Source of the DNA: Enoplolaimus lenunculus
Taxonomy: Eukaryota
NCBI GenBank assembly: GCA_030248215.1
Contig: JASANG010001013.1
Coordinates: forward strand, 186,001 to 250,000
Length of the DNA: 64,000 bases
Reading direction: 5' to 3'
Shown: one piece after another, positions 15,724 to 62,898 of the stretch
Layout: each line of letters opens with the position of its first letter
Numbering within the stretch: position 1 is the stretch's first letter
Position numbers and translations under genes: made by a program
The notes under the pieces: generated by a model
What the model saw: the letters and a program-made list of their open reading frames with translations, nothing else
The model's database searches: none
Told to the model about the DNA's origin: nothing

Positions 15724-16432
15724 CTGAAAATAGCGAACGAAAAAAATTATCTCCAGTAAATAACAATAAAAGTGTGAAGATATATTCTCAAATGTGCATA
15801 GCACCAAGAACCAATTATGACTCTGTAGGCAAAAGTGGGCAACGTCTTAAAATCAGGCCTGTAGCCAGTTCACCTTGCTAGGGGGGGCTAAAAAATTTTC
15901 AGGAGGGGCATTCAAGGGTTTATAACGGGTTACAAGCAAGGTTGAAAACTTTCTAGGGGGTCCAAAATTTTCCAGTAGGGGATGAGCCCCCCTGCCCCCG
16001 CTTGGGTAACACTGAATACATCAAAGTGGTGGTATTTTACCCATAACCCCTCATTTTAGGGGGTCTAAATTAGATACCCAATGCACAAAACACAAGACAA
16101 AATGATAATAAGGTCTAGAATGTAAGCGGACCATTTTCTACCATGCATTTAATTAGCATATTCTTCAATTTCGTGGTTTTAACCACGACCCCCCTTCCGT
16201 ATAAGGGGTTTGGCCAAAAATTTAACGCTGTTGGATACATTCTTTTGTACACAGAATATACTGACTTAATAAATTGCGTGGTACATTTTTCCGAGTTAAA
16301 AACGCCGTTCAACAGAATCCAGCATTGTACTAAACAGGTGTCACAGCGTTTCATCTAAAGTTACCCATTGAGACCATTAGTAGGGATAAATCTTGATCTG
16401 CTCACTGTTCCATATGCCCTATTCTCACTTAC

Positions 16433-18280
16433 TCGTTTCAAATACGACGTATTAACTTCAATCGAATCCACGCGATAATAGTCCGACCTGCCGTTGGACC
16501 CATGTCCATTCGCAGTGACCCCACCCATCCCGGCGCCGGCCGTTTGGACGCGGCCGTATCGATAAGGACCACCTCGTCCACTCAGCATCGGTCTTTTCAG
16601 CGATTCGTCACAACAACAACACTGAGTCCGTAAACAGTGTAAGAGTTCAAGTCTAAATCGCTGAGAAAACGCGTAATATATCGCAACATTGGTTGACGAA
16701 TTAAGGATTACCAACATATTACTGATGTCCATAACGCAATCTATTGTAGTAAGATTTGCCTCATAATAAGCTGGGTCAACGGCTTCGATAAAGTTTAAAA
16801 TGTACGGAAGTGTATTCGACGCAACAAAAGTTGCAATTAACACAAACATCATTACTGTTGTGCGATTTTCGCGTCGTTGTTGACTGCTAAGTGCACACTG
16901 CGATTTGCGTGCACGTGCAATTTCACGCACGATGCATGCGTTAAATGCAATGATTACGCAGAATGGACCAGCGAAATGTGTTAATAAGTAAAGCGCTGAA
17001 TGATACAAGAGTTGGTAGTTGTATTGACGACGAAGTAGAAAATCTAAACCGATTATTATTTCTTGTTGTTGTTGTTGTTGTTGTTGTTGTGGAGGTTGAG
17101 GTTGAGGTTGGAGTTGAAGTTGAAGTTGTTGTGACTGTTGCTCCTCTTGTTGTTGCTGCTGATGCAACGGTTTTTTCCGTTGTTTGTAGTGTTGTTGTTG
17201 TTGTTGTTGTTGTTTAAAATATTGCAGTTGCTGTTGATCTTGTGGTTGCTGGTGTTGTCGTTGCTTTTGTGCGTCAATTGCCTCGTGCTGTGAAGAAACA
17301 AGCGATTGCGGATGCGATGATCCGTTCATAGATTGGTTTTCGATGCTGTGGTTGTTTCTTTTTACGATGTCATTTTTGAAGTTGTTGTTGTTGTTATTAT
17401 TATTGTTGTTGGTGATGTTGTCGACGAAACTGTTTTCAGTGTTGCTATTGTTTATAATCGTCGCATTAATGATAATGTTATCATTGTTGTTGTAACTGTT
17501 TATAATACTGTAATTATTATCATTGTTACTAACGGTGTTATTGCCGCTGTTATGATAGTCGATGAAGCTGTTATTCCTGCCACAAATGATTGGATCGACG
17601 CATTTCGGAATATTGATAGCAACGTCACCGGGCCAATTAGAGCCTACCGTACCATGCCGATGGTTAGGTGGGTAGGAAAACACTAACCGAAACTCCCAAA
17701 ATCGTACAAAATTGTACGCCAGTGCAGTCGACATAATAATTGCAACTGCAAGCGATGCTTGCCTGCAAGTTGCAATCATGCGATCTCGAAACGGATGACA
17801 AACTACCGTATATCGTTCTATGGTAATGAGTACAAATGTCCAAACGCTCGCGGATCGGGCAGCCATACAAATTGGATAAATATAAACAAACGCATAAGGC
17901 AGGAAACGATTAAATATACGCCATCTTAGATACGTATTTAGTGCAGGCACTGCAAATAGTGCAGTACTTAGTGCAACAACAACAAAATCAATAACTGCCA
18001 AACTTATCAATATTGTATTGATAGGGTTGCGCATTGAGCGTCGACTAAATATTGCAATGGTAACTGAATTGCCTAACATACCAACACTGCAAACAATTGC
18101 AATTGCAAGACCAAATATTGCTGTACGAAATGATAAATCTTTGTCGTCGAAGTTGTTGTCGCTGGTAAAACGTACAGATTCAATGCTAACATTGCTAGCG
18201 ATCAAGATGGCGGTACTGTTTGGCGGCAGTTTTTCGAAGCCAGTCGAATTAGCTAGTTTTGGCGAAGCGTATTTATTCAT
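16433..18280 (-). CDS. Rhodopsin-class neuropeptide GPCR, FMRFamide-receptor-like; coding exon 1 (all 7 TM)
   Basis: GMLGN (TM1), LISLAVID (TM2), YIYPICMAARSASVWTFVLITIERYTVVCHPF (TM3), YNFVRFWE (TM4), AGPFCVIIAFN (TM5), FVASNTLP (TM6), NSSTNVAIYYAFSQRFR (TM7). Phase-0 donor CGA|GTAAGT at 16433/16432. Confidence 0.92.
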
Positions 18281-18338
18281 TATGATGAGAAGTATTTGGA
18301 AATAATTGGTTTGGTGGTTGTTTGTTGATAATTAGTGC

Positions 18339-27620: not shown

Positions 27621-28157
27621 TCGTTGCTCATAGTATACCCCGCGAAATCGGGTTGAACCGTGGCTTAATCGAGCAGGACGCGCTAAATAACCTTAGTTAA
27701 ACGGTGTATTTGACCAGGATCCAAAAGAAAAAACACATTTGATGAAAGAGTCGTGAAAATATTGAGGATTGTAAGGGAGATTTAAACGTTCAAATTTGTT
27801 GTTTATTTCGGTGCAATAAAATATAATTACATAAAACTAAACAATTCTGTCACAAAACAATCTGTTGAATGAAAACTAAGATATTCACGATATCCATAAA
27901 ATCGCTGGTTAGACTATTGGGTCAGATTTTGTCTGCTTATAGACCCCATATCGTATTCAAATATTCGTATTTGTCTGCTAATATCATGTATAGGTTACCT
28001 TTTGTCCTTCAATATCATATGATATTCGAGGCATTGTCTTCGTTCGCTGAACAAGCAAGTGGTAACTACCCATTGTTTGATATCCTTAACGAAAAAAATT
28101 AAAGCGAAAACCCCCCCCCCTGCCCCCACCCCCCCGCCCCCCCCCCCCCCCCCCGGA

Positions 28158-28304
28158 TTAAACAAAAATCTGGTTTATTTGCCAACAATTCTTAATTCTT
28201 GAAAACAACTAACTTCCATGAAAAAACCCCCGCAAACCTTGTTAACCTGCATATTATATCTTCGCAATACTACTTCATATGCAAATTTATGTAAATTTAG
28301 CACA
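28158..28304 (-). repeat. 3' LTR
   Basis: Copy of the 5' LTR. Only the terminal CA next to the poly-C tract is disturbed. Confidence 0.93.
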
Positions 28305-28312
28305 CTCCCAAC
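28305..28312 (-). promoter_or_regulatory. Short polypurine tract
   Basis: GTTGGGAG directly abuts the 3' LTR on the minus strand. Confidence 0.6.
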
Positions 28313-28329
28313 TGAAAGCTAAACCGTTG

Positions 28330-29494
28330 CTAATCATGTTTCAGTTTCCCAAAGCAATTTCGTTTAACCGCTAAGTGGTTTTTTGACAATTCATAACTAA
28401 CATTCTTCAACTCGGGCACACAATTGACCCATGCCAACCACATTTCACGAAAGCCGGAGTGATTAAGATGAAACCCGTCTTTGTCAAATAGGTTTGAATT
28501 ATATGTAGAAGTAGTTCCCTCTCCAAATGGACTATTCGGATACGAAAACCAATTAAGACACAATACTTTTGAATTGTTAAGTTGCATTTGAACCCACTCA
28601 GTGTGGTTTTTAGCATTTGGTACTGCAGGGTGGGGAATTGAGCAGCTGACTAATAATTTGATATCAGGAAAAGTTTCAGAAACATAATTCAAATGTCGCG
28701 CCAATTTTTCCCATGAATCATTCCATGATTGCTGAGCCCTTTGCGCATCGTTTACTCCACAATTTACCACGACCACAGCGAATCTAGATAAGTGTAAGCC
28801 TCTGATTGAAATTTCGTCGGCTAAATCACAAAACTTTCCCCCGAAATACAAACTACAACTCCACCATAAATCGATTGCAAATGTATACACTGACTGTCTG
28901 AGAGCACTAATACTGTCTGCGTATAACTTGAGGACATTTGATCCTTCTTCTTTTGCAGTTGCTTAACACCAAACCGCGGCACCTTTCGCCGTTCGATATG
29001 CAAAACGGCAAGTTTTGTAAGCATTTCACCGTAAAGATTGAACCCAGGATATTTTTCTCGCTGAGTTGCTGGACCGCATCGAAGACCACATGACCAGACA
29101 AACTCTGATCTAGCTTGACAATTAACAAACTGTATCAACTTTGGATTGCTTACAGAAGCCAGAATCTCTAAAAAACAGCACGACACATGTTGTTATTATG
29201 TTTCATAAGATTAATCAAAATGTCTAAGTACACATCATCTGCGCGAAACACCCATTCTGGCGAAAGCTGAAATCCATCCTGTTTTAGAAAAGCGCTAATC
29301 TCCGACGGATTATTTTGACAAACTGAACTTAGCAGCAATTTTTTGCTGATGTCCTTTTCATCATGCTGTAAAAGCATAAGATACCAGTACATCATTTCAA
29401 TAGACGTTACAGTTGTTTTGCCAAATTGTAGTGATTGAAACCGGTAAAAACGGGACAACGGAGACTGAGCATTGATAAATTGACGATGCGACAT
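28330..29494 (-). CDS. Retrotransposon ORF3: NADAR/YbiA-like domain fused to SGNH/GDSL hydrolase (about 388 aa after repairing two 1-nt homopolymer slips)
   Basis: Joins ORFs 29168-29494, 28821-29186 and 28330-28890 at a T6 run (29170-29175) and a G5 run (28838-28842). NADAR-like motifs: SPLSRFY, SIE, WSCGL...YPGFNLYGEMLTKL. SGNH blocks: LSDSQ, ISGG, CGVND, DGFHLN. Confidence 0.75.
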
Positions 29495-29570
29495 ACCGGC
29501 AACTATAACAAAACAAAATAATTAACTGAAAATATATACTACGAAATTATACTGTCTAAAGGTATCGACA

Positions 29571-30967
29571 CTAGTACTCAACGGATCCTTGCGACAAACT
29601 GTCTTGTTCGTCAGCGTGTACTACTGAAGGTTGGCTTTCGTTGTTAACAGGAACCTCAATAGGGAATAATTGCTGTAACGATCGTTTCAACACACGACCG
29701 TTTGCCATCCTGACGGCTGCTGAACGAACTTTATTATCTATACTCGGATAGAGACACACTATTTTCCCCATCTTCCACTGCCCACGTGGTAAATTGTCCT
29801 TAACGACCACTACTGATCCAATTTCAGGATGTAACTCACTGCTACCGCGATTGCTGAAACAAAAGTTATTTCTCAGACTCAACAAATACTGATTTCGCCA
29901 AGTGTTCCAAAATAAACTGAGAACGGCTTGCATGCGTTTGAACGTTAGAACTAATGACTGATGAGTAGCAGATTTCACTTGAACGTTCCCTAAATCTTTG
30001 GCAAACGAAGCAACCCCCAAACGGGGACCTCGTATAAAATGTGCAGGTGTAAGCGGTGCGTTTTCCACTTCGGTTCCTAAGTACGTGAGCGGACGAATGT
30101 TAACAACCGAACAAACTTCGGTCGCCACAGTCTGAAGCTCGATAAGTGAGACACAACGTTTGTCCAATGAAGCTTTTAGAGCTCGTTTAACACAACCTAC
30201 CATTCTTTCAAAAAATCCCCTCATCCAGGGAGATAACTCAGTTATGAATTTCCACGTTATACCTTCACATGCAGCGAAGTTGCGTACTTGTACCGATTCG
30301 AAAACCTGTCTAATAAACTGCTCTGTAGCCTGCAACTGTTTTCCGTTGTCTGATACAATCAATGTAGGTTTTCCATAAAATGACATAAACCTGCGCAGAC
30401 ACATTAAAAATTGGCACGCTGTTAGATCAGCAGCTATTTCCAGATGAACAGCACGTACGGCCGCGCACGTAAAGAGACAAATCCAAACTTTCTGATTGGA
30501 ACCTGTTGTAACTTTTATGAACAGTGGTCCCATATAATCAATACCAATGCAGTCAAATGCCCGAGTACTTTCAACGCGAAATGATGGTAATTGGGGAGGA
30601 GTTGGATACTTGAATGGCCCACCTTTCAATTGACGGCATACTCTGCACTCCGCTAAGATTGATTTGACTCTACTGCGACCGTGAATTATCCAATATTTTT
30701 GTCTTGTCAGTGCGAGAGTATGAGTAACACCTGCATGAAACGCTCGAACGTGGGTGTCCATGACTATCAGTTTCGTAAAATAGGCATGTTTAGGTAACAA
30801 TATAGGAATTTTAGCGTCTTCAGGTAACTCACTGTTTCCAAGACGACCTCGGCATCGAATCAATCCATCATCATCAAGGTATAAGCTTAACTGCCGAACT
30901 AAGGTGTCTCGTTTTCCGGTAGCAATGGATACTTGCAGTGATGCAAAGTGACCGTCTTGCGCCCGTT
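29571..30967 (-). CDS. pol: BEL/Pao integrase (continuation of Pol after a 1-nt frameshift near 30968)
   Basis: H..H/C..C zinc finger (HVRAFH...CRVC), DDE core GIDYMGP / SDNG / GFFERMVG, and a C-terminal FWNTWRNQYLLSLR...RGQWKMG region. Confidence 0.95.
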
Positions 30968-32998
30968 TTCCCACAGTTTCAGAGCTTCAGCTAATTCATA
31001 CGAAGTGAGCGCTTCTAAATTTGAATTCATTCGAGACACCCTATGTAATAAATTGTTGACGAAGCGAAGGACCCAAGCGGTCACTCGTAATAGACGTAAT
31101 AACGTTGAAAATTTTGTAATGTCCATAAATTCATCTAAGACATTAACGGACTTCGTAACAACTGCTAATGTTTTTTCTTCAGTTTTGGATAAACCGTCTT
31201 CGCTACTTTGCGATAACTCGTTTGCTGGCCACTGATCACGGTCAATTAACCAACTTGGACCATGCCACCATTGTGGATTAACCATCAAATCTTGGTAAGT
31301 GCATCCTCGAGAAATTAAATCTGCTGGATTGTCTTGTGTTGGTACATATCGAAAGGTGATTCCTTCGTAAGATTTAATCTCAGACACGCGGTTGTGAACA
31401 AATTTGGGTTGAACTGACGATTTTTTCAACCAGTGCAATACACACTGCGAATCCGTCCACGCTACCTTGTCGATTATTTTAATGCGCAGCTGGTTGACCA
31501 CAAATGCAATTAGGCGGACTGAAATTAGGACACCCATTAGTTCCAAACGAGGAATGGAAAGTTCTTTTAATGGAGCGACCCGTGATTTAGCAAACACCAA
31601 CTGTGATTCTGTCATACCATTTTGTTGTCGGTTAAGGTAAACACATGCACCAAATGCTTTTGCTGATGAATCGCTAAAAGAATGAAGGCTGAAAGTTGCA
31701 TTTTCGTTTGTTGGTGCAGCAAAATAGCAGCGAGGAATGGAAAATTCCGAAATGCGCTTAACTTCTGCAGTGCAATTACACCATTCTTTGTACAATTCTG
31801 GTGAAAGAGTGGAATCCCAGCTGTAATTCTGTTTCCATAATTTTTGAATCAGTATTTTGCCTGTAACCGTAACTGCTGCAAAGTATCCGCACGGATCATA
31901 TACTTTGGCAAGAGTGCTTAACGCCAAACGTTTAGTTACGGCTGTTGTGACTGGAGTAATTGAAATGCCTGTTGAAAGTGTGTCATTTTCTGTGTCCCAA
32001 CTGAGACCTAGTACCTTCGTTTTAGTTTCTTTTCCACGGCCTTTTTCTGCAAATTCATTCCGAAGGCAGGTACTATTGGTAAACCACTCTCTAAGGTTCA
32101 TATTTGCTTTGCGAAACAATTCTTTTGCGTTAACATAAAATGTGGTAGCCTTTCCTATAGTCGATGCTCCTGTTATAATGTTATCAACGTAAATATTTCC
32201 TGCAATATTGTTAACGACGTCTATTTTCGAGTGTTCAATATGATACTGTATTGTAGCTGCTAGTAGAAAAGGGCTCGATATCACTCCAAAAGAAACTCGA
32301 CAAAACCGATACGTGACTAAGTTAGTTAAACAAACCGGCTTATTGATGGTTTTGAGCCAAAGAAATCGCGTAACATCTCGTGAACATGTTTTTAAACCAA
32401 CCTGCAGAAATGCCTTTTCTATATCGCTTATGACCGCTATTGGATGCAGGCGGAATCTTATTATAAGACCACACAAATCATCAAGAATAATTGGCCCTCG
32501 TAACAAACTTTCGTTGAGACTGGGTAACGTTTTATTCATTTTGGCCGATGCATCATAAACTATTCGCAATTTGGTTGTAGTCTTTGCTGGAGACAACACG
32601 TAGTGGTGCGGAATATAATGAACTTTCCCGGGTTCTGCCGGATTCGTTGCTTCTTCAATTATACCGTTGCGTAACTGATCAAGAATTGTTTCACTGTATT
32701 TTTGCAACACATCTGATTTCTGGGCTATTCGTTTTACTAACGTTTTGAGACGACCGAAAGCAAGTTGATAATTATCTGGTAATTCAGGCACATTTTGTTT
32801 CCACGGCCATTCTACGTAATACCGGCCGTTCTGATATATAATCGTGCTGTTGAATACCTTAAGTGCTTCATCATCATCTGTTGAAACTTTGCATGGTTTA
32901 ATTCCTATGTCTTCCAGACTCCAGAACCGTTCAATATCGATCGTTGACTCGGAGGTAGAATTGGTTTGTGATAAGAAAAGAACTGAATGAACATGATT
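30968..32998 (-). CDS. pol: BEL/Pao Pol, RT and RNase H region (in frame with gag after the TAG)
   Basis: IERFWSLEDIGI, YIPHH, KLRIVYDAS, SDIEKAFLQV, FGVISSPFLL, YVDN, LHSFSDSS, SIPRLEL, WTDS, NPADLISRG. Confidence 0.95.
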
Positions 32999-34882
32999 CT
33001 ACTTGTTTTTAGACAGAACTTTTCCCGTTACTATATAACCCAGTGTAGACGATAACAAAACAACTCCACTTGACAATTTTATTTGCTCTGGACCAGTAAA
33101 ATCGTAATAGTAATCAGTGCCAACTAAAATTTCAATTTCAACCATTTCGGGTTTTGAAGTAAGTGGTTCAGCCAGTGGCAATTTGGTCATAACACACCGA
33201 GAATGTTCGTCAAGCGGTACCTTTTCGATTTCACAAGAAATTACAGGTGTGACGTTCGCTGTTATTAACTGCTGAGTTCCATCGGGCCGCCTAATTCCAA
33301 ACTTTACAGACTTGTAATCAACTGTTCTACGTGTGGCATCCGCAAATCCAGCAATTGCGACTGTCTCATTAGGTTTGCGACTAACTACGATTTTTTCACT
33401 AAGCCTGCTTGTAATAAAAGAACGAGAGCATCCAGTATCAAAAAGAATGCGGGCGTAAACAGGCTGCCCGTTTTTGCCGTTCAATGTTGCTACGGCTGTT
33501 TGTAAAATAGCTGTTTCTCCGTAAGCAATTAACTGATTGGCGACTTGCGAAGTTTTACTATTAGTTTCGACCGTTAGAACAGAAGTTGCTTCTGGATTAT
33601 TGGACCGGTTGGTTGACTCTGCGGAAAATTTTACTGTACACAGGCTTCTGTGGTGACCGAACTTGTGACAGTGTGCACATGATCGTTTGCTCTGGCATAC
33701 TTTTGCCAAATGTTTGTTGCTTAGACACTTGAAACATCTTTTAGACTTAATAGCCTGCTGCTTACGACTACTTGAATCTGAATATCTATCACACTGATCT
33801 GCGTAATGTGTCCCACTACAAAAACTGCAACGGGGATTTGCCGTTGTATAACTAGCTACTAATGCCGATGTAGTTCCTCCCGTAGTTTTATTTAGACGAA
33901 CTACATGTCCGGACTGACGTTTTCCTATTTCCTGCTCTTTGGACGCGCCTGTCTGATTACCGAATACTCTTTGACTGTATTCGCGAGCTCTAATTTCCTC
34001 TTTCAGCCATTCTCGAAGGTTAGACAACTCCCAAGGGCTTGATCCATTTTTCCTGTGAAGTTCCATTTTTGCAAATGTTGGTAATTTTGCCAGAATTATA
34101 GGTGTGAATACCTGCCCAAAAGTTTTCTCTTGTAAACCTAACGCCACTAAGCTTCGTATGTGGCTCTCGCATTCGTCAAAGGTTTTTTGTAATTGTCTAA
34201 TGTCATGCGTCGCCGTAGGAATTGCAAGCATAGACTCTAAATGTGCGAAAATTGCTAATTGGGGATTGCCGAAACGTTCGCGTAACGCTTCAACAGCTTC
34301 TGTATAGTTTGCATTTGTAAGGCGATAACCATCGATTAAACGCAGCGCATCACTTTCTAGGAAACTTCTTAGATACTTAAATTTATCTACATTGGCTAGT
34401 TGTTCATTTTGATGTATGGTGGTCACAAAACTATCCCAAAATTCAGTCCACCTTAAAGGATCCCCACCGAATTTTTTCATTTCCAGTTTCGGTAGTTTTG
34501 CGTATAGTACTTTTGATTCATTTACAGATGTTTCCAATGTAGCCTGTTTGCGCGTCTCTGTAGGATTCGATTCCGGAAACAAATGCTCCTGGGTACTAAG
34601 GGTTGAAATAGCTTCAAGCATTATATCATCCAAGTCTGCTGCTTGCTTGCTTTCTATTTCACCCTCTTGATCATCCTCAATTGACAATAAAATTTCATCG
34701 TTTAGTTTCGAAATACGATTGCGGTAGTACTTTATTTTGTTTGAGCATACTGCAATGCCTTGTAAGTCTAGATCTTTAGCTTGTTGTGAAAAAAGTTGCG
34801 CCTTTGCCAACTCTTTTTTAACGTTTGATATTAGCGCATTTCTTTGGCGCTTTGCTCGCAATAATTCCTGGTCAGTAGACAT
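32999..34882 (-). CDS. gag: BEL/Pao Gag + aspartic protease (627 aa up to an in-frame TAG)
   Basis: LPKLEMKKFGGDPLRWTEFWDSF (DUF1759-type Gag); knuckles CSFC..H..C, CFKC..H..C, CAHC..HH..LC; protease LFDTGC and ILVGTD. Confidence 0.93.
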   Translation of the reverse strand: MSTDQELLRAKRQRNALISNVKKELAKAQLFSQQAKDLDLQGIAVCSNKIKYYRNRISKLNDEILLSIEDDQEGEIESKQAADLDDIMLEAISTLSTQEHLFPESNPTETRKQATLETSVNESKVLYAKLPKLEMKKFGGDPLRWTEFWDSFVTTIHQNEQLANVDKFKYLRSFLESDALRLIDGYRLTNANYTEAVEALRERFGNPQLAIFAHLESMLAIPTATHDIRQLQKTFDECESHIRSLVALGLQEKTFGQVFTPIILAKLPTFAKMELHRKNGSSPWELSNLREWLKEEIRAREYSQRVFGNQTGASKEQEIGKRQSGHVVRLNKTTGGTTSALVASYTTANPRCSFCSGTHYADQCDRYSDSSSRKQQAIKSKRCFKCLSNKHLAKVCQSKRSCAHCHKFGHHRSLCTVKFSAESTNRSNNPEATSVLTVETNSKTSQVANQLIAYGETAILQTAVATLNGKNGQPVYARILFDTGCSRSFITSRLSEKIVVSRKPNETVAIAGFADATRRTVDYKSVKFGIRRPDGTQQLITANVTPVISCEIEKVPLDEHSRCVMTKLPLAEPLTSKPEMVEIEILVGTDYYYDFTGPEQIKLSSGVVLLSSTLGYIVTGKVLSKNK

Positions 34883-35164
34883 CGGATATCAGATACTAAT
34901 AGAAAATAAACAAACGTTACCTTTATATCACTCTCAAATTTTGCACCTCACTACTGTTCTACAGATTCCCAAAATTGAGGTTGTTGTAGTTGTAGTTTAA
35001 ACAATCAGCGCTAAAACCTGGCACCGATTGTTTGTAAATGTCTCCTGAAACCATGTATTCAATAAGTATTCCAATGAAATGATGTGCTTACCGAATCTGT
35101 TTGTTATTTCCACTGTAAACGCTGTTTGACCATACACCAAAAGTTGCACTGGCAGAGTAATATC

Positions 35165-35174
35165 CGAAGGACCA
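35165..35174 (-). promoter_or_regulatory. Primer-binding site, probably tRNA-Tyr
   Basis: TGGTCCTTCG lies immediately 3' of the 5' LTR and is complementary to the ...CGAAGGACCA 3' end of animal tRNA-Tyr. Confidence 0.8.
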
Positions 35175-35322
35175 TGTAAACAAAAATCTGGTTTATTTGC
35201 CAACAATTCTTAATTCTTGAAAACAACTAACTTCCATGAAAAAACCCCCGCAAACCTTGTTAACCTGCATATTATATCTTCGCAATACTACTTCATATGC
35301 AAATTTATGTAAATTTAGCACA
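35175..35322 (-). repeat. 5' LTR (148 bp, TG...CA)
   Basis: The minus strand reads TGTGCTAAATTT...TTTGTTTACA. 35177-35322 is identical by eye to 28159-28304 and contains AATAAA on the minus strand. Confidence 0.95.
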
Positions 35323-35938
35323 AAAAAGGGGGGGGGGGGGGGGGGAGCGAAAGGGGGGGTTTTGGGGGGGGGGGGGGTGAGCCCCCACTGCCCTCCATGG
35401 CTACGGGCCCGCTCTGTTGCCAGTAGAAAGGGTCAAAAATTCAGGGAGACGTAGGTGGCGATTTGACAGTATTTACAAGCAGTGTTAAAAATTTTCGAGC
35501 GGGGGCTAAATTTCTGAAAAGTGTGCGGCTAAGTTTTCCGTGGTCCCCCTCTAACTAAAGGCCCCAAAAATCGTTGTAGCCTTTACGGTGGCACATGATT
35601 TTTGCGTCAGTGAGTGATAAATTACGCAAAAATCATTGCGCTGTTCATCGCCATATTTTTAGATAAGCATTAATTTAAGCAAATTTGATTTAAAATTTAA
35701 AATATTCCGTGTATTTTGCTAATTAAATTTCGTGTATCTGAAACGACGTGAAAAATTTAAAATTCTTCCAAAAATGTGACTGTGAACAGACTAGCCAGCG
35801 TCTTGTACGAGCAGATTAGCGTTACAAACGCCTACGATTTAAACTTTTTATTGCTAAAATTTAAAAAATGCTATAGATTTGTCACAAAATGAAATCGTGG
35901 CTACGCCAGTGGTTGTCAAATACTAACAGTTTTACTTC

Positions 35939-36188
35939 GGTCAATGTAAAGAACAGGGGCAGAACAGTATTATAAGAATATTCCTAAGCCTAAGCGTAAG
36001 CCTAAGCGTAAGAATCAGCATATTCCTACGCCTAAGCCTAAGCCTAAGCCTAAGCGTAAGAATGCGCATATTCTTAAGCCTAAACCTAAGCCTAAGCCTA
36101 AGCCAATCAAAAAAATTAGTCTAAATCTTAAACGCACTCTTTTCTAGTCCCACAGAAAAACGTTCCGCCCCTGATCTTTACATGAGCC
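35939..36188. mobile_element. Family A telomere-repeat MITE
   Basis: TIRs, GCCTAA blocks, TSD TTTACTTC/ATTACTTC. Confidence 0.85.
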
Positions 36189-39100
36189 ATTACTTCTATA
36201 GCACAGATTTTTGGGCAAATTTTACAAATGGCTTGAGGTTGCCCGCCGTCGCTTATTCTGTGGTCTTTGTCTCAGCTGTCCAGCTGTTGTTTAATCTGAA
36301 CTGAGAAAAACGTTCATTGAGCTGAAATCATGACTCTTCGCTGCAAAATGATACTAACATACTGTTGCATTGTCTGTACAAAACGATAAGGCTTTTGTGC
36401 ACTTTTCTGCCCACTATTTTAATTAAGGCTTAGATTTAGGCAAATGCTTAGGCTTAAGAAAGTCGTTTTTTTCAACCTAAAGTCAAAATCTATAATCCCA
36501 AGTGTGCGCTGAAGCCTTAGTCTAAGCGTTAAAAATAAACGTGAGCCTAAACCTTAAGCCCTATTCACACGTGCAAGTTTTTGCTGCGAGATCTTGCAGC
36601 TGCAAATTGCACGTAGAACTTGCATTTTTTTATCAGCCAATGAGAAGGCGGATGTAATAAATTCATTGAACTCGCATATTTTTTCACACATGTGAACTAA
36701 ATTTGTAACTTTGATTTTTAATCAATTTTTGCAGCTCCAAGTTTTTCGAACGGGATTTTGGACAAAACTTGCAAGTGCAAGTTGCAGCTGCAAGTTCTCG
36801 CAGCAAAACTTGCACATGTGTATAAGGTTTTGGGCATTCTGGTTTTTAATGGCCCCAGTCTCTATGCAATTACACAGGCAAGACCCATGTATTAACATAT
36901 GCTAACTGTTCAAATATACTTTGGACTTTAGCCAGCTAAAATTCTGGACGCAAGTTTTTAATTTTAAACTCGAAACCACAAAAGTGTTTAAATTTCACTG
37001 GACGAAGCGTTTAAAAATGACTAAAAATTGATTTTTTTTTGCCTAAAAACAGCGATTAGCGGAGCACATACTGTGCCAGTTTCTTTTTCGTTTGGCTTTT
37101 CGTCTAAGAGTATGCTTGCATATTTAAACTGTGTTAGACATGTAAACAGACCCCGTAGACAGCTCATGGGGGTGCTAAACACTTTTTTGCCAGGGGCATG
37201 CAAGCATCCCAGATGGCTCACAAATGAGGTTGAACCTTTTCAGGGTAGGAAGGGGGGGCTGTAAGATCACCAAGTTGGCGACGGAGGCAAGCAACAACCC
37301 AAACACAATTTTAGCATTAAACTCGATTTTAGCATGAAATCTTAATACAAAATTTTGGTTTTAAACTTTATGGGGCCAAAGGAACCCCATCGCCTTCTTC
37401 TTGATGTGCCACTGCTACGGAAGAACAACATTGTTCAGGCGGTTCCGTGCCCTCCTCTGTCCCCCTTGGCTACGAGCCCCAGATATGAACCAGTGCAATT
37501 ATGAGTCTGACGGCAGAAACAAAAATGTACGAAAAAAAATATATTTTAACAATCGCAGACAATTGTGTATATAAAGCCTTTAAGCTAAGACTTTCTTTTT
37601 AAATTTAAGCACGTAAACGAAGCCTTTATATATAATCAACATACCGTTTCACACCTCATTAATTCTTTTATTAGGCAAAAAATAAATCATGAACAACGCG
37701 CTCTTCCTAGCCTGAACCTAATACAACTGTAGAATGGAGTTAAAGGTTTTAATTTCGACTCGCAGGCAAATAGCGCCCTCCCTTACTGATCCAGAAATTA
37801 ATATTTTTACTTTCAGTGCCGAACAGTGACGTTCGCTGAAAATTTGATTTCGGGAGGGCACCGAATGATTTTAGGGCATCCTACAATTGCAATTCAAGAT
37901 TGTTTACATTTAGACCGAGTCCATTTTGGGGGGCGGTAGCCATATTGTGGGGGGAACGGATCCACAGTGCACCCGTGAGAACGACTTTAGCGCCGAGAAA
38001 GAGTTAGAAGTTACGACAATTTTTCCCTGTCCACTCTAAATGCCGTCGTCTCCTATCCCCTAGCAATCCTCGAATTCGGGGGTGATTTAGTCAGGCAAAA
38101 GATTAATATTTGCACTATTTGAACCTACTTTAACACAAAACTGGCTAACGTTGTATTTTTGAATGCCAGTTGAGATTCAAAAGATTTGCACATGAGTCCG
38201 GTTTAAAGATTTAGCCTAGTTTTCGGCTTAGGCTTAGACGTAGGAATATGTTCATTCTTACACTGAGTAAACGATAGAAAATTATTGGGGGAGCTCAACC
38301 CTTTATCACATGAATATTTTCTATTTCATCTGGAGACGGAACGTGTTGCAATTCTTAAACACTGTGCGATATATGTTATTTAACGTTGCGCTGAGTTACC
38401 CATAGACAACTCTTTGAGAAAAGGGGTTAAGAAACTTCCCCCTTGACATAAAATTAACGCCCTATGTTAATATTGTTATAAAATAGCTTTTCTGAGAACT
38501 ATATATACCATTTTGTATAAGAAGCAAATTAATTCTACTGAATGCTAATTTCAATACCAACCGATACAGGTTGAAATGTACCAAAAATAGCCAGCAAAAT
38601 AAATGATTATTAATAAAATTCCTATCCGTCCCTGGGGTACCACGGACTGCGATACCCAGAAAAAATAGCAGCATTGCACCAGCGGTTTGTTTTGCCAAGA
38701 CTGCATAATGACAGGAGTGCGCATGCCTTGAGTTCTGCATGGCGCAAAATGTACCACCGGGTGTTGCGTTTTTGGCCGACCGCCCCTTGTTTAGAGGGGG
38801 GTCGCTATCACATGATCTAAATTAAACTATAACGGAAGCATGTTTGATGCCGCATACATAAAGTGCCATGGTCTGCACCGGTTGTACCCCCATCTAAATA
38901 AATGGGGTTGGGCAAAAACGCAACGCGTGCCGGGTGCATTCGTTTCAACGCAGAATGTACTCAGTTGCACACTCTTGTCAAATAGCGATTATCCACTCTT
39001 GGTTTTGACAATCCGCTGGTTGCGATCCCGGCCACCATATGTGGGGGCAAATGGACCAAATATCAAAAAAATGACGTTAAGGGAAATCGCCATATTTGTT

Positions 39101-44600: not shown

Positions 44601-44952
44601 AAATCAACTCACTGAAATTTACAGTGAAGGCTCACCTTGCGTAGAGGCCAAATAAATATCAACACCCCTCTTATTCGGGTCATTACAGTAGCAAACCAGA
44701 TATGACCAGGACGAGGAAAAAGGACCTGTGTTTAAAAGTCTACGGCCGATATCAAGCCGGCGTTTGAAGAGATGCATATAGGGAGGGGCACAATTGCCAA
44801 TGCCAAACGATTGCTGTCAGACAAAGACACATACTTCCTTTTCGAATAATAAACATTATCAATACTTTATTTTCAGTTGCAACATTTTTGTTGTTTTTTG
44901 TCACGCAAAATAACCAATTAAACCTGGATAGAACAGGCTAAGCATTTTCATG

Positions 44953-45160
44953 AGGCAATGTAAAGAACAGAGGCGGAACAGTATTATAAGCATATTCCTA
45001 AGACTAAGCCTAAGCCTAAGCCTAAGCGTAATAATAAGATTATTCCTAAGCCTAAGCCTAAGCCTAAGCCTAAGCCAAGCAAAACAATTAGTCTAAAGCT
45101 TAAGCGTACTCTTTTTTTGTCCCACAGAAAAACGTTCCGCCCTTGATCTTTACATGGGCC
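44953..45160. mobile_element. Family A telomere-repeat MITE
   Basis: CAATGTAAAGAACAGAGGCGGAAC...GTTCCGCCCTTGATCTTTACATGGGCC. Confidence 0.83.
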
Positions 45161-47520
45161 AGAGGTACATACAAGGGTTTGCGATGACTTACAAGCGGAG
45201 TTGAAACTTTTCTATGTGAAGGCAACATTCTCCTACGATGGCTCCGGTCTCCTGACTTCCCCAACTGGCACGAGCCTGCTCGAGACAAGGGACCATTTAA
45301 CGGTACTCTCCGGCCTATCATACTCACGTATTGTGTAATTTCAAAACGCCCTGCTTAAAAGTTTCAGTATCTAATTTTTCAGTGTCAACTTAAAGTTTGA
45401 ATTAATTCGTCAGATTTATACCAAAACAACATTATTTTCTATTTTGAAATTTCGTGTGTTTTTAACAGACATTTCTAGGAATTGTGCCATGCTTAAGAGA
45501 ATGTGAGAAATGATAAAATAAAAACAGTATTTCAATCAGTGTCGTTGCCAGATCACCTTAAAAGCGGGGGCTAAACATTTGTCAGGAGGGATATACAAAG
45601 GTTTTCGGTGACTTACAAACAAGGGTGCAAATTACCTAGGGGGCGGGTTTTCGAAGACTTGCAAGCAAGGTTGAAAATTTTTTGGGGGAACAGGGTTTAT
45701 GAAGGCTTACAAGCAGGGTTGAAAGTTTCTTAGAAGGGGCAAAATTCTTCCTGGTGTGTGCTTAGCCCCCCCCTGGCCCCTCTCTGTAGCTACGGACCCG
45801 ATTCAATTACAGAACGTACGATAAACATAGTAGCTATTGGCAATATACCTGGTTCACAAACGGTAATTTGTTATTCCATGCACAATAAATACAGTACATT
45901 TTTGCTTCAAAACACTGTTTAGGATTAATGGTCTGAAAAGCCCTCACTGTAAATTTCAGTGAGTTGATTTTAACTCAGAATAAGTTGAATCAGTCTGAGT
46001 TAGGATTATCAGAACTCAGAATTTTGAGGTAATTCAATTTATTCTGAGTTCAACTGACCCAGAGTCAATTCAACTCAGAGTGAGAATAAGCTCAACTCAC
46101 AGTGAATTAAGGTTTACTGATACTAATTCAGAAATAACCAACTCGCAAGCGGCATTGCTTAATCAACTCATTGTAATTTACAGCGTTCATTTGAACTGAA
46201 GGCACCGCGCCAAATCAAGTTGTTTTTGGAAAGTAAAAAACAAACATCAAACTTAAACTTACATCAACCATTTCTCACATGAATATTTTCTATTTTGTAA
46301 AGGAACTTGTTTCAAGATCGGAATCGAATAGGCGTTTATCTTTACCGCTCAGGTACAACGCTCAATTGCAAGGGATTCTCACGTCTTATGAAGATTTTTC
46401 ACATACTTAATATGGTTTGCGACAAGTTGAGTTGATTATGGTATGGGTCTACACGCGAAAGGGTTAAAAACAACGTATTTTCAAGAGTGTAGGAAGTGAC
46501 ATATAAAGATTGAAATGTCCTGACCAACCTTCGTAGCCTCTGGTTCCCTGCGGTTTAGTCTCTATGCTGGAATAGATTTTCCAAATAACCGGCCCATCAG
46601 CGGATCCAGGGATTTCCGGTGGAAACGGATCCTTTTTAAATGCTTTGAAATGTTATCTCTTTTAAATATTAAAGTGTGTTTTAAGCAAATATAAATTTCA
46701 ATATTTCGAATTGCACATAGCGTTGAATTTGCAAACATTTTGCAATTTTAAAAGCCTAATTTTGCAACGTGAAATAGCGAGGGGGGGTCGTTTGCAGGCG
46801 CCCTCGCGTGGTCTGCCCCTAGGCTGTATGCACCCAGAATCCGTATCCCTAATAACAGTCCGTAAGTGGATAGAGTCCCTAAACTCTAAATAGAGTCCAT
46901 AAATGTCAATTATTCCAATTGTAGTGTATAAATGACTCCAGGACTAAAAAAGTAGGGTTCGAACCTTGAAAGCGTACTTAAATTTTGAAAGTGCATTACT
47001 AAGTATAACCCTGCATTATCTCTCAAGCTATTAATGCAAAGTAAAAACCGTTTAATTCAACGGATAGTTGCAATACTGGATATATATCAGTAACGAAGGG
47101 TGGCGGAGCGTGGGTTAACAATAAATAACAGTCCGTAACCGAATAACAAGGGGGGGTACCCTCTGGAGAGGCCAAATAAATATCAGTCCCCCCTCCTATT
47201 CGAGTCACTTTAGTACGTGAAGCTGCATACAAGTGCAACATTCTCAAATGCGTATAGCACCTATCACCAGTTAGCGATAGATTTTCAAAAAGCTCATTAT
47301 TTGCAGAATTGGAATGTTATTACTACAAGACCTGCCACTAACTGATGATAAGGTGCTATGCACATTTGAGAATACAGACATTGGTATAAATTAATTTGTC
47401 AGCATAAGAAATAGGTTTTGTTTGAAACCGTAGTATTTTAAGCTTAGCGCTCACAAACCCGTTTGGCTCTGGTCCTGCAGATACATAATCGGTTTGTGCA
47501 ATAAATTGTTCACAAACATC

Positions 47521-59352: not shown

Positions 59353-60179
59353 TGATGCACACTTATTATATATTGAAAAGTTAGACAATGTTGCTTTAAA
59401 TGGTTCCGAATACTGACTGAATTACCTTCTATTTTTCTGTTTCTGGCGAAAATTTTGCCTAAATATATTCATAAGTACAAATAATTCGAACTTCAGATTT
59501 TTGTATCATATGATACGCTACAGGACATTCAGACTAATTTATCACAACTTTGCAGACATTTTTGAACAAGCCACATGATACTGACGGACAATATCTCGAA
59601 TATTATATGATATTGCAGTATATACTAGTGAAGGGCACATCAGGATAGCAGACAATTCAAATTTTTTGAATTTGTTAGCGGGTCAACGTACAGACAAAAT
59701 GTTACTCGCTATAGTAATAGGGACAAACCATGTTGCTGGATGCCCCAGCTGTAACGTGGATCCCGTATTAACATGGACATCGGAAACAACGAATGTTTTG
59801 AAAAATATAACACAGTTATTGTTAGAATATTTTACAAAGTTTAAATTTTAAAAAATGTTTCCAATAATTTATTTGGCGTATTTTGTGATAATTATTCAAT
59901 GTAAGCATAGAACAATATTCATTCTGTATATAACAGCAGATATGATTGCAAGCTCGCTAGTCTCTCAGCTTAATGCCTAATCCTTTCTCACATGAAAATT
60001 TGCTATTTCGCATAAGAGCTAATTTCAAGCCTGAATTCGAATCGCCGCCTCAGGGTAACAGGCGTTTACCGTCATCATTCAGCAATAAAAGCTTGAAGCT
60101 CGAGCCCAAGGGACCTGGGGCGCCTGACGTCATGTGGTGATTGCGCAAAGCGCATACGCGTTCAATTGTTAAATGTTGC

Positions 60180-60420
60180 GGCCAATGTATAGAACAGGGG
60201 CGGAACAGTATTATAAGCATATCTGTAAGCCGAAGCCTGAGCCTTAAGCGTAAGCCTAAGCGTAAGAATGAATTTATTCCTAAGCCTAAGCCTGAGCGTA
60301 AAGATGAGCCTATTTCTAAGCCTAAGCCTAAGTCAAGCAAAAAAAATTAGTTCTAAAGCTTAAAATTACTCTATTGCAGTCCAACAGAAAAACGTTCCGC
60401 CCCTGATCTTTACATGGGCC
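60180..60420. mobile_element. Family A telomere-repeat MITE
   Basis: GGCCAATGTATAGAACAGGGGCGGAAC...GTTCCGCCCCTGATCTTTACATGGGCC. Confidence 0.87.
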
Positions 60421-60540
60421 AACATTTGCGTACAGTGTGTTAAATCATGTCGTATACAGATTGCTTTAAGCTTTCACCGTCTACGATATGTTAAAATCGA
60501 TTATTGACAGTACTTGAAAAGTCTTTTCCATTAAATTTTG

Positions 60541-60723: not shown

Positions 60724-61232
60724 AAATTTTGATTTAAATATGAAAATATAACGTAGTGTAAGTATGATAATTCACTCTTGACAAACCGATAAATGAATTG
60801 AAATGCACGCAAATGTTTGCCTTGAGGATCATATGGCACACTGTAAATTCCAATGAGTTAATTAATGAACTCAAAGAACGAATTGGTCATTTCTCGTTAT
60901 TTCTTGGTTAATAAGGATAAACATCGTCTCATTCTGAACGATGCATTTTAAATCAGAGCTAAAACGTTTAAATTTTAATATTTCAGGTACAAACGCGGAA
61001 CCGTCAGCAATTTCTACACCAAAACGAGCTAAACTGATTCGGTTAAGTGCGTTGTTGTTTTACAGCATTGAGTATTTTTACTGAAAAATATGCTATAAAG
61101 TTTATTGTGTTAAAATTAAAATGGCTCGGGTCAACAGAAACGCCAAAAGTACAAAACAGGACACTGGTGCCATGCATGGTTTCTGGGTTAAAGTTGGGAG
61201 AATTTTAAACAGATCAAAGTTAGGGGTCGAAA

Positions 61233-62072
61233 TTTTCAAAGGGTCAAAATTTTGACAATTTTAAAAGGGTCAAAATTTGGTTAAATTTTAAAAGGATCAA
61301 ATTTTGACAATTTTAAAAGGGTCAAAATTTGGTTAAATTTTAAAGGGATCAAATTTTGACAATTTTAAAAGGGTCAAAATTTGGTTAAATTTTAAAAGGA
61401 TCAAATTTTGACAATTTTAAAAGGGTCAAAATTTTGACAATTTTAAAAGGGACAAAATTTTGACAATTTTAAAAGGGTCAAAATTTGGTTAAATTTTAAA
61501 AGGATCAAATTTTGACAATTTTAAAAGGGTCAAAATTTGGTTAAATTTTAAAAGGATCAAATTTTGACAATTTTAAAAGGGTCAAAATTTTGACAATTTT
61601 AAAAGGGTCAAAATTTTGACAATTTTAAAAGGGTCAAAATTTTGACAATTTTAAAAGGGTCAAAATTTTGACAATTTTAAAAGGGTCAAAATTTGGTTAA
61701 ACTTTAAAAGGATCAAATTTTGACAATTTTAAAAGGGTCAAAATTTGGTTAAATTTTAAAAGGATCAAATTTTGACAATTTTAAAAGGGTCAAAATTTTG
61801 ACAATTTTAAAAGGGACAAAATTTTGACAATTTTAAAAGGGTCAAAATTTGGTTAAATTTTAAAAGGATCAAATTTTGAGAATTTTAAAAGGGTCAAAAT
61901 TTGGTTAAACTTTAAAAGGATCAAATTTTGACAATTTTAAAAGGGTCAAAATTTTGACAATTTTAAAAGGGTCAAAATTTTGACAATTTTAAAAGGGTCA
62001 AAATTTTCACAATTTTAAAAGTGTCAAAATTTGGCTAAATTTTAAAGGGATCAAATTTTGACAATTTTAAAA
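61233..62072. repeat. Satellite with a 26-bp palindromic monomer and a 52-bp dimer variant, about 32 monomers
   Basis: TTTTAAAAGGGTCAAAATTTTGACAA (26 bp) is interspersed with a 27+25-bp pair. Confidence 0.95.
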
Positions 62073-62898
62073 CTGGTTTAGAGTTGCGCTATGCTTTACT
62101 GTACTGGACGCTGCCGCGTGCGCACCGAACACCCATATATGCGTTGCTAACAAAAATATAGGCAAAATGTATTTGGGTAATGCTGTGTTTGTCGGGGCGC
62201 GAGAAGTACATATATAGCGCAATCCTAATATTCGTTACGTATTATATATACATATAAAATATAAAATATATATTTAGTTTTTTAAATTGCGCGATATACC
62301 CTAAATTTGACCCGAGTCACGGCTCGAGGGTCGCATTCCTAACGCCGCTGGCATGTTTTGCGGCTCACAACCGGTAAAGGTTACTCTAAAAAGGATGGGC
62401 CCATACCTAAACAGGGTCGTAGCCAGGACTTCATTTTGGATTTCGTCTACAAGTTTTTTCGCCAGCCCGTCCAGCGAGCGAGAACATTTTTTTATCTCTG
62501 CGAGTTATTCTACAGCCGGTACAAGTGCGTTTTCACAAGTTAGCACAACATTGTGGGAATTATATACCCAAATTGACCCTGAACGCTGCTATGGATGTCG
62601 TCGCGGTTAAGTGGCAAAATTCCGTGCTGGACGGCATCGGCCGAATACGGATGACGCCGGCCGGCGCCTGATTTGTTTGTAGTATTTCTTTTAGGAGCTG
62701 TTCAGTTTTGTGTCAATAATCCAATTTTCTACTCACCGTCACAGTCAATTTCAACGTCCTCAGAGGGGGCCCAAATATAATTTCAGAGACGAAACGCGGT
62801 ATTTTCTATGATTTAGTAACGTTTTTTGAACTAATTTTCATAGAACAGCTGAATAAATACGATTATTCAAATTTCAACAACCGTTTTATATCAATATT

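Follow-up and report, generated by a model that had tools for sequence, protein, structure and literature searches.

The Vesta LTR retrotransposons of bdelloids carry a GDSL/SGNH ORF3 in the env position (PMC5408684), the esterase of ZfL2-1 is active and binds liposomes (PMC3905857), and NADAR/YbiA domains are found in oyster Tx1 LINEs, within ORF1, and in a single Gypsy lineage of Ectocarpus, within Pol (PMC12477816), according to the sections of these papers cited here. Retroelements have thus acquired NADAR and SGNH domains again and again. Here we describe a BEL/Pao element with a NADAR-fold domain and an SGNH esterase domain joined in a single gene, ORF3, in the env position; it lies in a 64-kb stretch of DNA, which we call the window. 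A literature search covering sources other than Repbase, GyDB and subscription papers returned no NADAR-SGNH fusion, and neither domain as a BEL/Pao ORF3. The novelty is narrower than the first-pass annotation of this DNA suggested, each of the two domains being already known in retroelements.

The element is a BEL/Pao LTR retrotransposon. It has an LTR pair with a primer-binding site and the gene order gag-PR-RT-RNase H-IN, and the Pao-specific domains DUF1759, DUF1758, Peptidase_A17 and DUF5641 (4/4) score above the Pfam cut-off. These domains, the LTR pair and the linkage of two ORF3 relatives, P0006 and P0025, to Pao pol genes bear out the element context given in the first-pass annotation. 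Its features, in window coordinates, are the following.

35175..35322, minus strand: 5' LTR, TG...CA, 148 nt, with AATAAA at LTR position 126
35165..35174, minus strand: primer-binding site, beginning TGG and adjoining the 5' LTR; putative tRNA type
35086..35092, minus strand: candidate splice donor G/GTAAG in the leader
32999..34888, minus strand: gag-protease frame with DUF1759 and DUF1758, closed by an in-frame TAG at 33001-32999
30899..32998, minus strand: RT and Pao RNase H, Peptidase_A17 at E = 6e-52, with a shift into the integrase frame near 30965
29571..30986, minus strand: integrase with Integrase_H2C2, rve and DUF5641; stop at 29571
29526..29532, minus strand: TTTTCAG, a 3' splice-acceptor consensus of presumed use, 31 nt 5' of the ORF3 ATG
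28305..28311, minus strand: short purine-rich stretch in the polypurine-tract position
28159..28304, minus strand: 3' LTR, matching the 5' LTR at all 146 nt, without the terminal CA

The LTRs form a direct repeat (35177-35322 and 28159-28304) with no mismatch in 146 nt, and because identity spans only that length an LTR-based bound on age is loose. The flanks of the element (28100-28158 and 35323-35400) show no target-site duplication and hold G/C runs: read in the sense of the element, long G runs border it at one end and C runs at the other.

In the window TTAGGC, the nematode telomere repeat, occurs 99 times, against 20 for TTAGGG. Arrays of TTAGGC/GCCTAA lie inside a dispersed repeat family with conserved flanks and more than 10 copies in the 64 kb (for example at 35938-36190, 44941-45162 and 60179-60422). 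A tandem array at 61127-62180 is built of a 26-nt unit with a 52-nt higher order and internal palindromic symmetry, and a 656-codon open frame on the minus strand at 16364-18331, with an internal short tandem repeat, has 7tm_1 and Srw/Srx chemoreceptor matches. The telomere-type repeats and the receptor frame make a nematode the likely host.

Between the integrase stop and the 3' LTR lie three overlapping minus-strand frames (29168-29521, 28821-29192 and 28330-28962), which the first-pass annotation had joined into one protein of about 388 aa by adding a base to each of two homopolymer runs. That length is consistent with the 1165-nt span of ORF3, from an ATG at 29494 to a stop at 28330, and the runs lie where they had been placed (T6 at 29170-29175, G5 at 28838-28842). 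We left ORF3 unrepaired and searched each of its pieces on its own.

29168..29494, minus strand: ORF3 piece A, N-terminal stretch of the NADAR fold at profile positions 1-109, ending at the T-run break
28821..29192, minus strand: ORF3 piece B, remainder of the NADAR fold, linker and SGNH block I, profile positions 109-225
28330..28842, minus strand: ORF3 piece C, SGNH blocks II, III (CGVND) and V (DGFH), profile positions 222-385

Matched to a profile of 20 metagenomic relatives, pieces A, B and C gave E-values of 6e-31, 5e-34 and 3e-55 at these positions, and pieces A and B had played no role in choosing the relatives. That separate pieces tile one profile end to end shows that they are one gene by descent and not a chance arrangement. 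Direct searches with the pieces recovered far less: Pfam matched GDSL_2 to piece C at E = 0.019 and had no match for A or B, and a PDB sequence search with piece B returned 0 matches. As first annotated, the LSDSQ serine codon is at 28895-28893 in piece B and DGFH at 28479-28468. Other motifs needed correction: CGVND is present at 28761-28747, the range first given for it spanning GVND alone; the first NADAR motif is present but reads PLSRF, not PLSNF; and ISGG appears solely when read across the G-run break and within no single frame.

A full HMMER search with piece C recovered 30 matches at E up to 0.001. Two of them, P0005 and P0030, had no match to the family profile and were dropped as spurious. 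Both domains share one frame in 20 of the 28 genuine relatives. The family alignment was built from 20 of the 28, short pieces and long fusions being excluded. Its rows are 20-34% identical to P0001, and the closest pair in the family, one near-duplicate aside, is 41% identical. All 20 relatives checked have no functional name or are called 'hypothetical', and they come from JGI, Logan and ENA contigs of 1.3-9.4 kb. The intact protein is predicted to measure 390-430 aa. Two relatives connect the family to BEL/Pao independently of each other: P0006 runs in frame through Pao RT, RNase H and integrase into profile positions 123-388, and P0025 has the integrase end and DUF5641 followed in frame by the cargo at positions 1-382. 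In pol, both share 39-45% identity with the window element. The sequence tie to BEL/Pao pol extends to 2/28 relatives only, and some of the other 26 may belong to other elements or be host genes. Among the 120 integrase relatives listed, 0 carried an in-frame cargo, as is expected if ORF3 is a separate gene. Word-based homologue searches, an insensitive method, found piece C in none of the longer proteins and gave 2 matches with the family profile. The nearest Atlas clusters of two relatives are NADAR, with scores of 0.86 and, for P0012, 0.90, the P0012 cluster being mostly nematode; we treat these assignments as leads only.

Structure prediction places both domains in one protein. The P0001 model, computed from the alignment, has a pLDDT of 91.9 and a pTM of 0.88, the latter predicting fixed packing of the NADAR and SGNH domains. 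Over residues 1-171 its fold is that of the Phytophthora NADAR 8BAU (Z 13.6, rmsd 2.7, 156 aligned) and of YbiA (2B3W, Z 12.0); over residues 194-361 it is that of GDSL/SGNH esterases, the best of which gave Z 15.9 (rmsd 2.6, 159 aligned). Foldseek agrees for both halves, with E = 4e-6 on the SGNH half and viral NADARs at E = 2e-4 on the NADAR half. Profile-profile comparison (hhalign) of the family with 13 NADARs gave 90.4%, E = 1.4e-6, over 139 columns; the family profile compared with the single YbiA sequence fell below significance. The combination of the two domains, first proposed from motifs, is thus upheld by the model and by the profiles alike. The family escapes present Pfam thresholds: among the 30 matches, 13 gave GDSL_2 with E-values of 0.1 or less and 2 gave NADAR, none passed the curated cut-off for either domain, and the best GDSL_2 score in the family was 31.8 bits, the gathering cut-off being 32.9.

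The esterase site is nearly invariant. Across the 20 aligned relatives the catalytic set comprises Ser (20/20), the block II Gly (19/20), the block III Gly-x-Asn (Gly 20/20, Asn 19/20), Asp (18/20) and His (20/20), and the same S, G, N, D and H are found in the ORF3 pieces of the window. Such conservation, at 20-34% overall identity, argues strongly for long-standing selection. Among natural PDB sequences, the family profile matched 4C1B best (E = 2.6e-6), the esterase of the ZfL2-1 retrotransposon. Judged by these residues, the SGNH half is likely an active esterase in the intact form.

The NADAR site has been remodelled. In sections of a published study, mutagenesis showed that K50 of 8BAU and the acidic E125 of the last strand are needed for guanine-ADP-ribose hydrolysis, and NADARs were also reported to be able to act on other substrates (PMC11543638). 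Both residues are invariant in 13/13 control NADARs. By profile alignment, as opposed to superposed coordinates, the K50 position is basic in 0/15 family rows that reach that column, and the E125 equivalent with its neighbours (columns 124-128) is acidic in 0/20 rows, with one His at column 127. A Lys or Arg two residues beyond the K50 position in 6/15 rows speaks against the reading that the Lys was lost. What the family keeps is the first Glu (E43, acidic in 12/15), the Asp (D130, acidic in 19/20), the Trp (W133, aromatic in 19/20) and the G..N..G motif. The family-wide lack of this Lys and of the catalytic Glu disfavours a DNA ADP-ribose eraser and leaves unsupported the suggestion in the first-pass annotation that the NADAR half might serve as one. 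From its residues, the NADAR half looks like a remodelled binding module, possibly with another N-glycosidase activity, and does not resemble a DarT-type eraser.

The ORF3 product is not an entry glycoprotein. An env protein would have a transmembrane anchor and a fusion-protein fold; both domains here are modelled as soluble enzyme folds, and hydropathy revealed no transmembrane stretch among the 20 aligned relatives (peak below 1.6 in 19/20, the exception sitting in an SGNH strand). A basic cluster in the C-terminal tail occurs in just 13/28 relatives. The evidence supports intact ORF3 as a long-conserved retroelement cargo, not an env. The first-pass annotation had called it a selected cargo rather than an env, which holds for the family, conserved as it is in distant relatives; selection on the copy in the window is not borne out.

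How such a cargo would be expressed is suggested by the TTTTCAG acceptor, which lies within a 76-nt spacer of 72% A+T, 31 nt ahead of the ORF3 ATG. In the non-coding DNA of the window, 8 of 1529 ATGs have such an acceptor within 40 nt. The start is covered in 13 relatives, and in 5 of these the gene calls extend upstream of the start Met; a TTTCAG-compatible peptide footprint occurs within ten residues in 5/5 relatives with readable upstream residues. The chance of this is 4e-5 on a protein background and 9e-5 on an A+T-rich background, for a footprint spotted post hoc and read from peptides, not DNA. P0026, with a long N-terminus, has no splice footprint. The Cer1 element of C. elegans makes spliced and SL1-trans-spliced mRNA, according to the cited part of that study (PMC3315495). 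Together with the acceptor, the footprint suggests that ORF3 is made from an env-like spliced or SL-trans-spliced RNA.

The copy in the window is broken, and its breaks are not alike. We compared it with contigs of three public runs from two samples of one study, which may include the window's own source. The first-pass annotation had treated the two homopolymer slips as equivalent; in fact the G-run break is missing from covering contigs in 3/3 runs, whereas the T-run break is common to the runs, occurring in contigs of 3/3. Absence from all three makes the G-run break either an assembly error or private to the window copy. Assembly error as the source of both breaks was considered and ruled out for the T run, since the same break is in 3/3 runs. 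The RNase H/integrase frame change at about 30965 is likewise common to 3/3 runs, with no gaps, and the in-frame TAG at 32999-33001 past the protease is in 2 runs, the third being undecidable. Among the rows listed, differences from other copies comprise 7 synonymous and 16 non-synonymous changes in the main set, 4 synonymous and 7 non-synonymous changes plus an indel in a diverged fragment, and 0 synonymous and 5 non-synonymous changes in further rows; 36 rows lie outside this count. These differences among copies in the host species look neutral, as under drift, with no purifying selection seen. The earlier inference of selection finds no support in the window's own copy, in which gag-pol itself is broken and copy differences are neutral-looking.

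Several further observations concern these contigs. A diverged fragment of the 5' part of ORF3 (29246-29433), differing by 11-12 letters and one indel, is present in all three runs, joined to unrelated sequence. In one run a contig skips 28400-29022. Across 28277-35043, contig depth, which is not copy number, declines in all three runs from the 3' end toward gag, most steeply in run X3, where it falls from 99.5 to about 9.

With moderate confidence, we favour the reading that the window holds a decayed copy of a conserved BEL/Pao accessory ORF3, whose intact form would be soluble, likely spliced, and likely to combine an active esterase with a binding-type NADAR fold. ORF3 would probably be placed first on a subgenomic RNA, cis- or SL-trans-spliced via the TTTTCAG acceptor. 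Its esterase would very probably hydrolyse acyl esters. It is fairly likely that the NADAR half is no guanine-ADP-ribose hydrolase and would instead offer a ribose/phosphate-type pocket, serving as a nucleotide- or RNA-binding anchor. More tentatively, and by analogy with the ZfL2-1 esterase, both domains might aid the membrane association and movement of RNPs or particles in germ cells.

Were the breaks programmed recoding, the window copy would be functional. Contigs of 3/3 runs have the T-run break as well as the pol frame change, and those of 2 have the gag/pol stop, which fits such a scheme, as do the identical LTRs. However, 20 relatives have ORF3 in a single frame, P0006 is unbroken through RT, RNase H and integrase, copy-to-copy changes look neutral, and the runs belong to one study that may include the window's own source, which makes recoding very improbable. 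Because the relatives are continuous at the break sites, we read the common breaks as decay, and the window copy as a decayed, non-autonomous one; intact copies may exist in the same genome, as contigs drop rare variants. Scarcely more probable is a host or viral gene captured once by the window copy and without a role for the element. The BEL/Pao tie shown in only 2/28 relatives would suit such a capture, as would the mostly nematode NADAR cluster nearest to P0012 (0.90, a lead only), but the same gene sits in the same position in two distant relatives (39-45% pol identity), and of the 20 relatives checked none is functionally named or stems from a reference genome.

Given a conserved accessory ORF3, its activity may be read in other ways. 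The protein could act in counter-defence, with an active NADAR N-glycosidase stripping ADP-ribose-like marks from element nucleic acid while the esterase strips acyl marks. The NADAR fold is clear from structure and profile comparison, the first Glu, Asp, Trp and G..N..G are retained, the Glu, Asp and Trp of SNA-3 domain 2 were found on mutation to matter for its function (PMC9303266, in the part cited), and NADARs can use other substrates (PMC11543638, likewise in part). Yet the needed Lys (0/15) and the acidic residue (0/20) are gone from the family, both being present in 13/13 control NADARs, and no host writer of such marks is known here, so that we consider this activity unlikely. We hold equally doubtful a single enzyme whose esterase site would receive its substrate, an acylated nucleotide or a derivative of ADP-ribose, from the NADAR pocket that had bound it. 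Retention of the fusion in 20/28 relatives, the fixed packing predicted by a pTM of 0.88, and the retention of binding-type residues with loss of catalytic ones would all accord with such a handover; against it, many ADP-ribose contacts (basic, K75/R79 region) are unconserved in the alignment. The accessory ORF3 with an esterase and a binding-type NADAR fold remains our preferred reading.

It is tempting to speculate further that the window samples a widespread, undescribed BEL/Pao lineage that uses host (trans-)splicing and fills its env slot with a reader-eraser, in which the NADAR domain would bind ADP-ribosylated, acylated or capped RNA or nucleotide and would be rigidly fused to an acyl-removing esterase. 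We regard this as a long shot. If true, it would point to an unknown acyl- or ADP-ribose-based mechanism by which hosts ward off retroelements in the germ lines of invertebrates, and the recurrence of NADAR and esterase domains in unrelated retroelements would be accounted for. Whatever the activity, the range of genes able to fill the BEL/Pao env slot is widened, and because the fusion is small and soluble, with many intact natural variants, a near-invariant esterase site and a remodelled NADAR site, what the two domains do for retroelements can be tested directly by assay and structure.

In summary, each half of ORF3 has counterparts in systems already described, here compared with the sections of the papers cited. 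Vesta ORF3 is likewise an env-position esterase with S-G-N-H intact and without a transmembrane domain; an auxiliary role has been proposed for it, and in one case it is fused to a second enzyme, DEDDy. Vesta differs in belonging to a Gypsy-like rotifer lineage, not BEL/Pao, and has no NADAR there (PMC5408684). ZfL2-1 ORF1p (4C1B), also a retroelement SGNH esterase, comes from a non-LTR element, occupies the ORF1 position and has a coiled coil where our family has NADAR (PMC3905857). The Ectocarpus and oyster elements share with the window element a retrotransposon-borne NADAR, which lies inside Pol or ORF1 and is termed highly conserved (PMC12477816); the window family, in contrast, has its NADAR joined to an esterase in an ORF3 of its own, with the essential Lys and Glu missing. 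YbiA (2B3W) and 8BAU have the fold of family residues 1-171, and their Glu, Asp, Trp and G..N..G are partly kept in the family, which lacks their essential Lys and their catalytic Glu. C. elegans SNA-3 is a nematode NADAR protein with a role in RNA processing and one domain without the conserved residues; unlike the ORF3 of the window, it is a trans-splicing factor of the host, has three NADAR domains and, in the sections cited, no esterase (PMC9303266).
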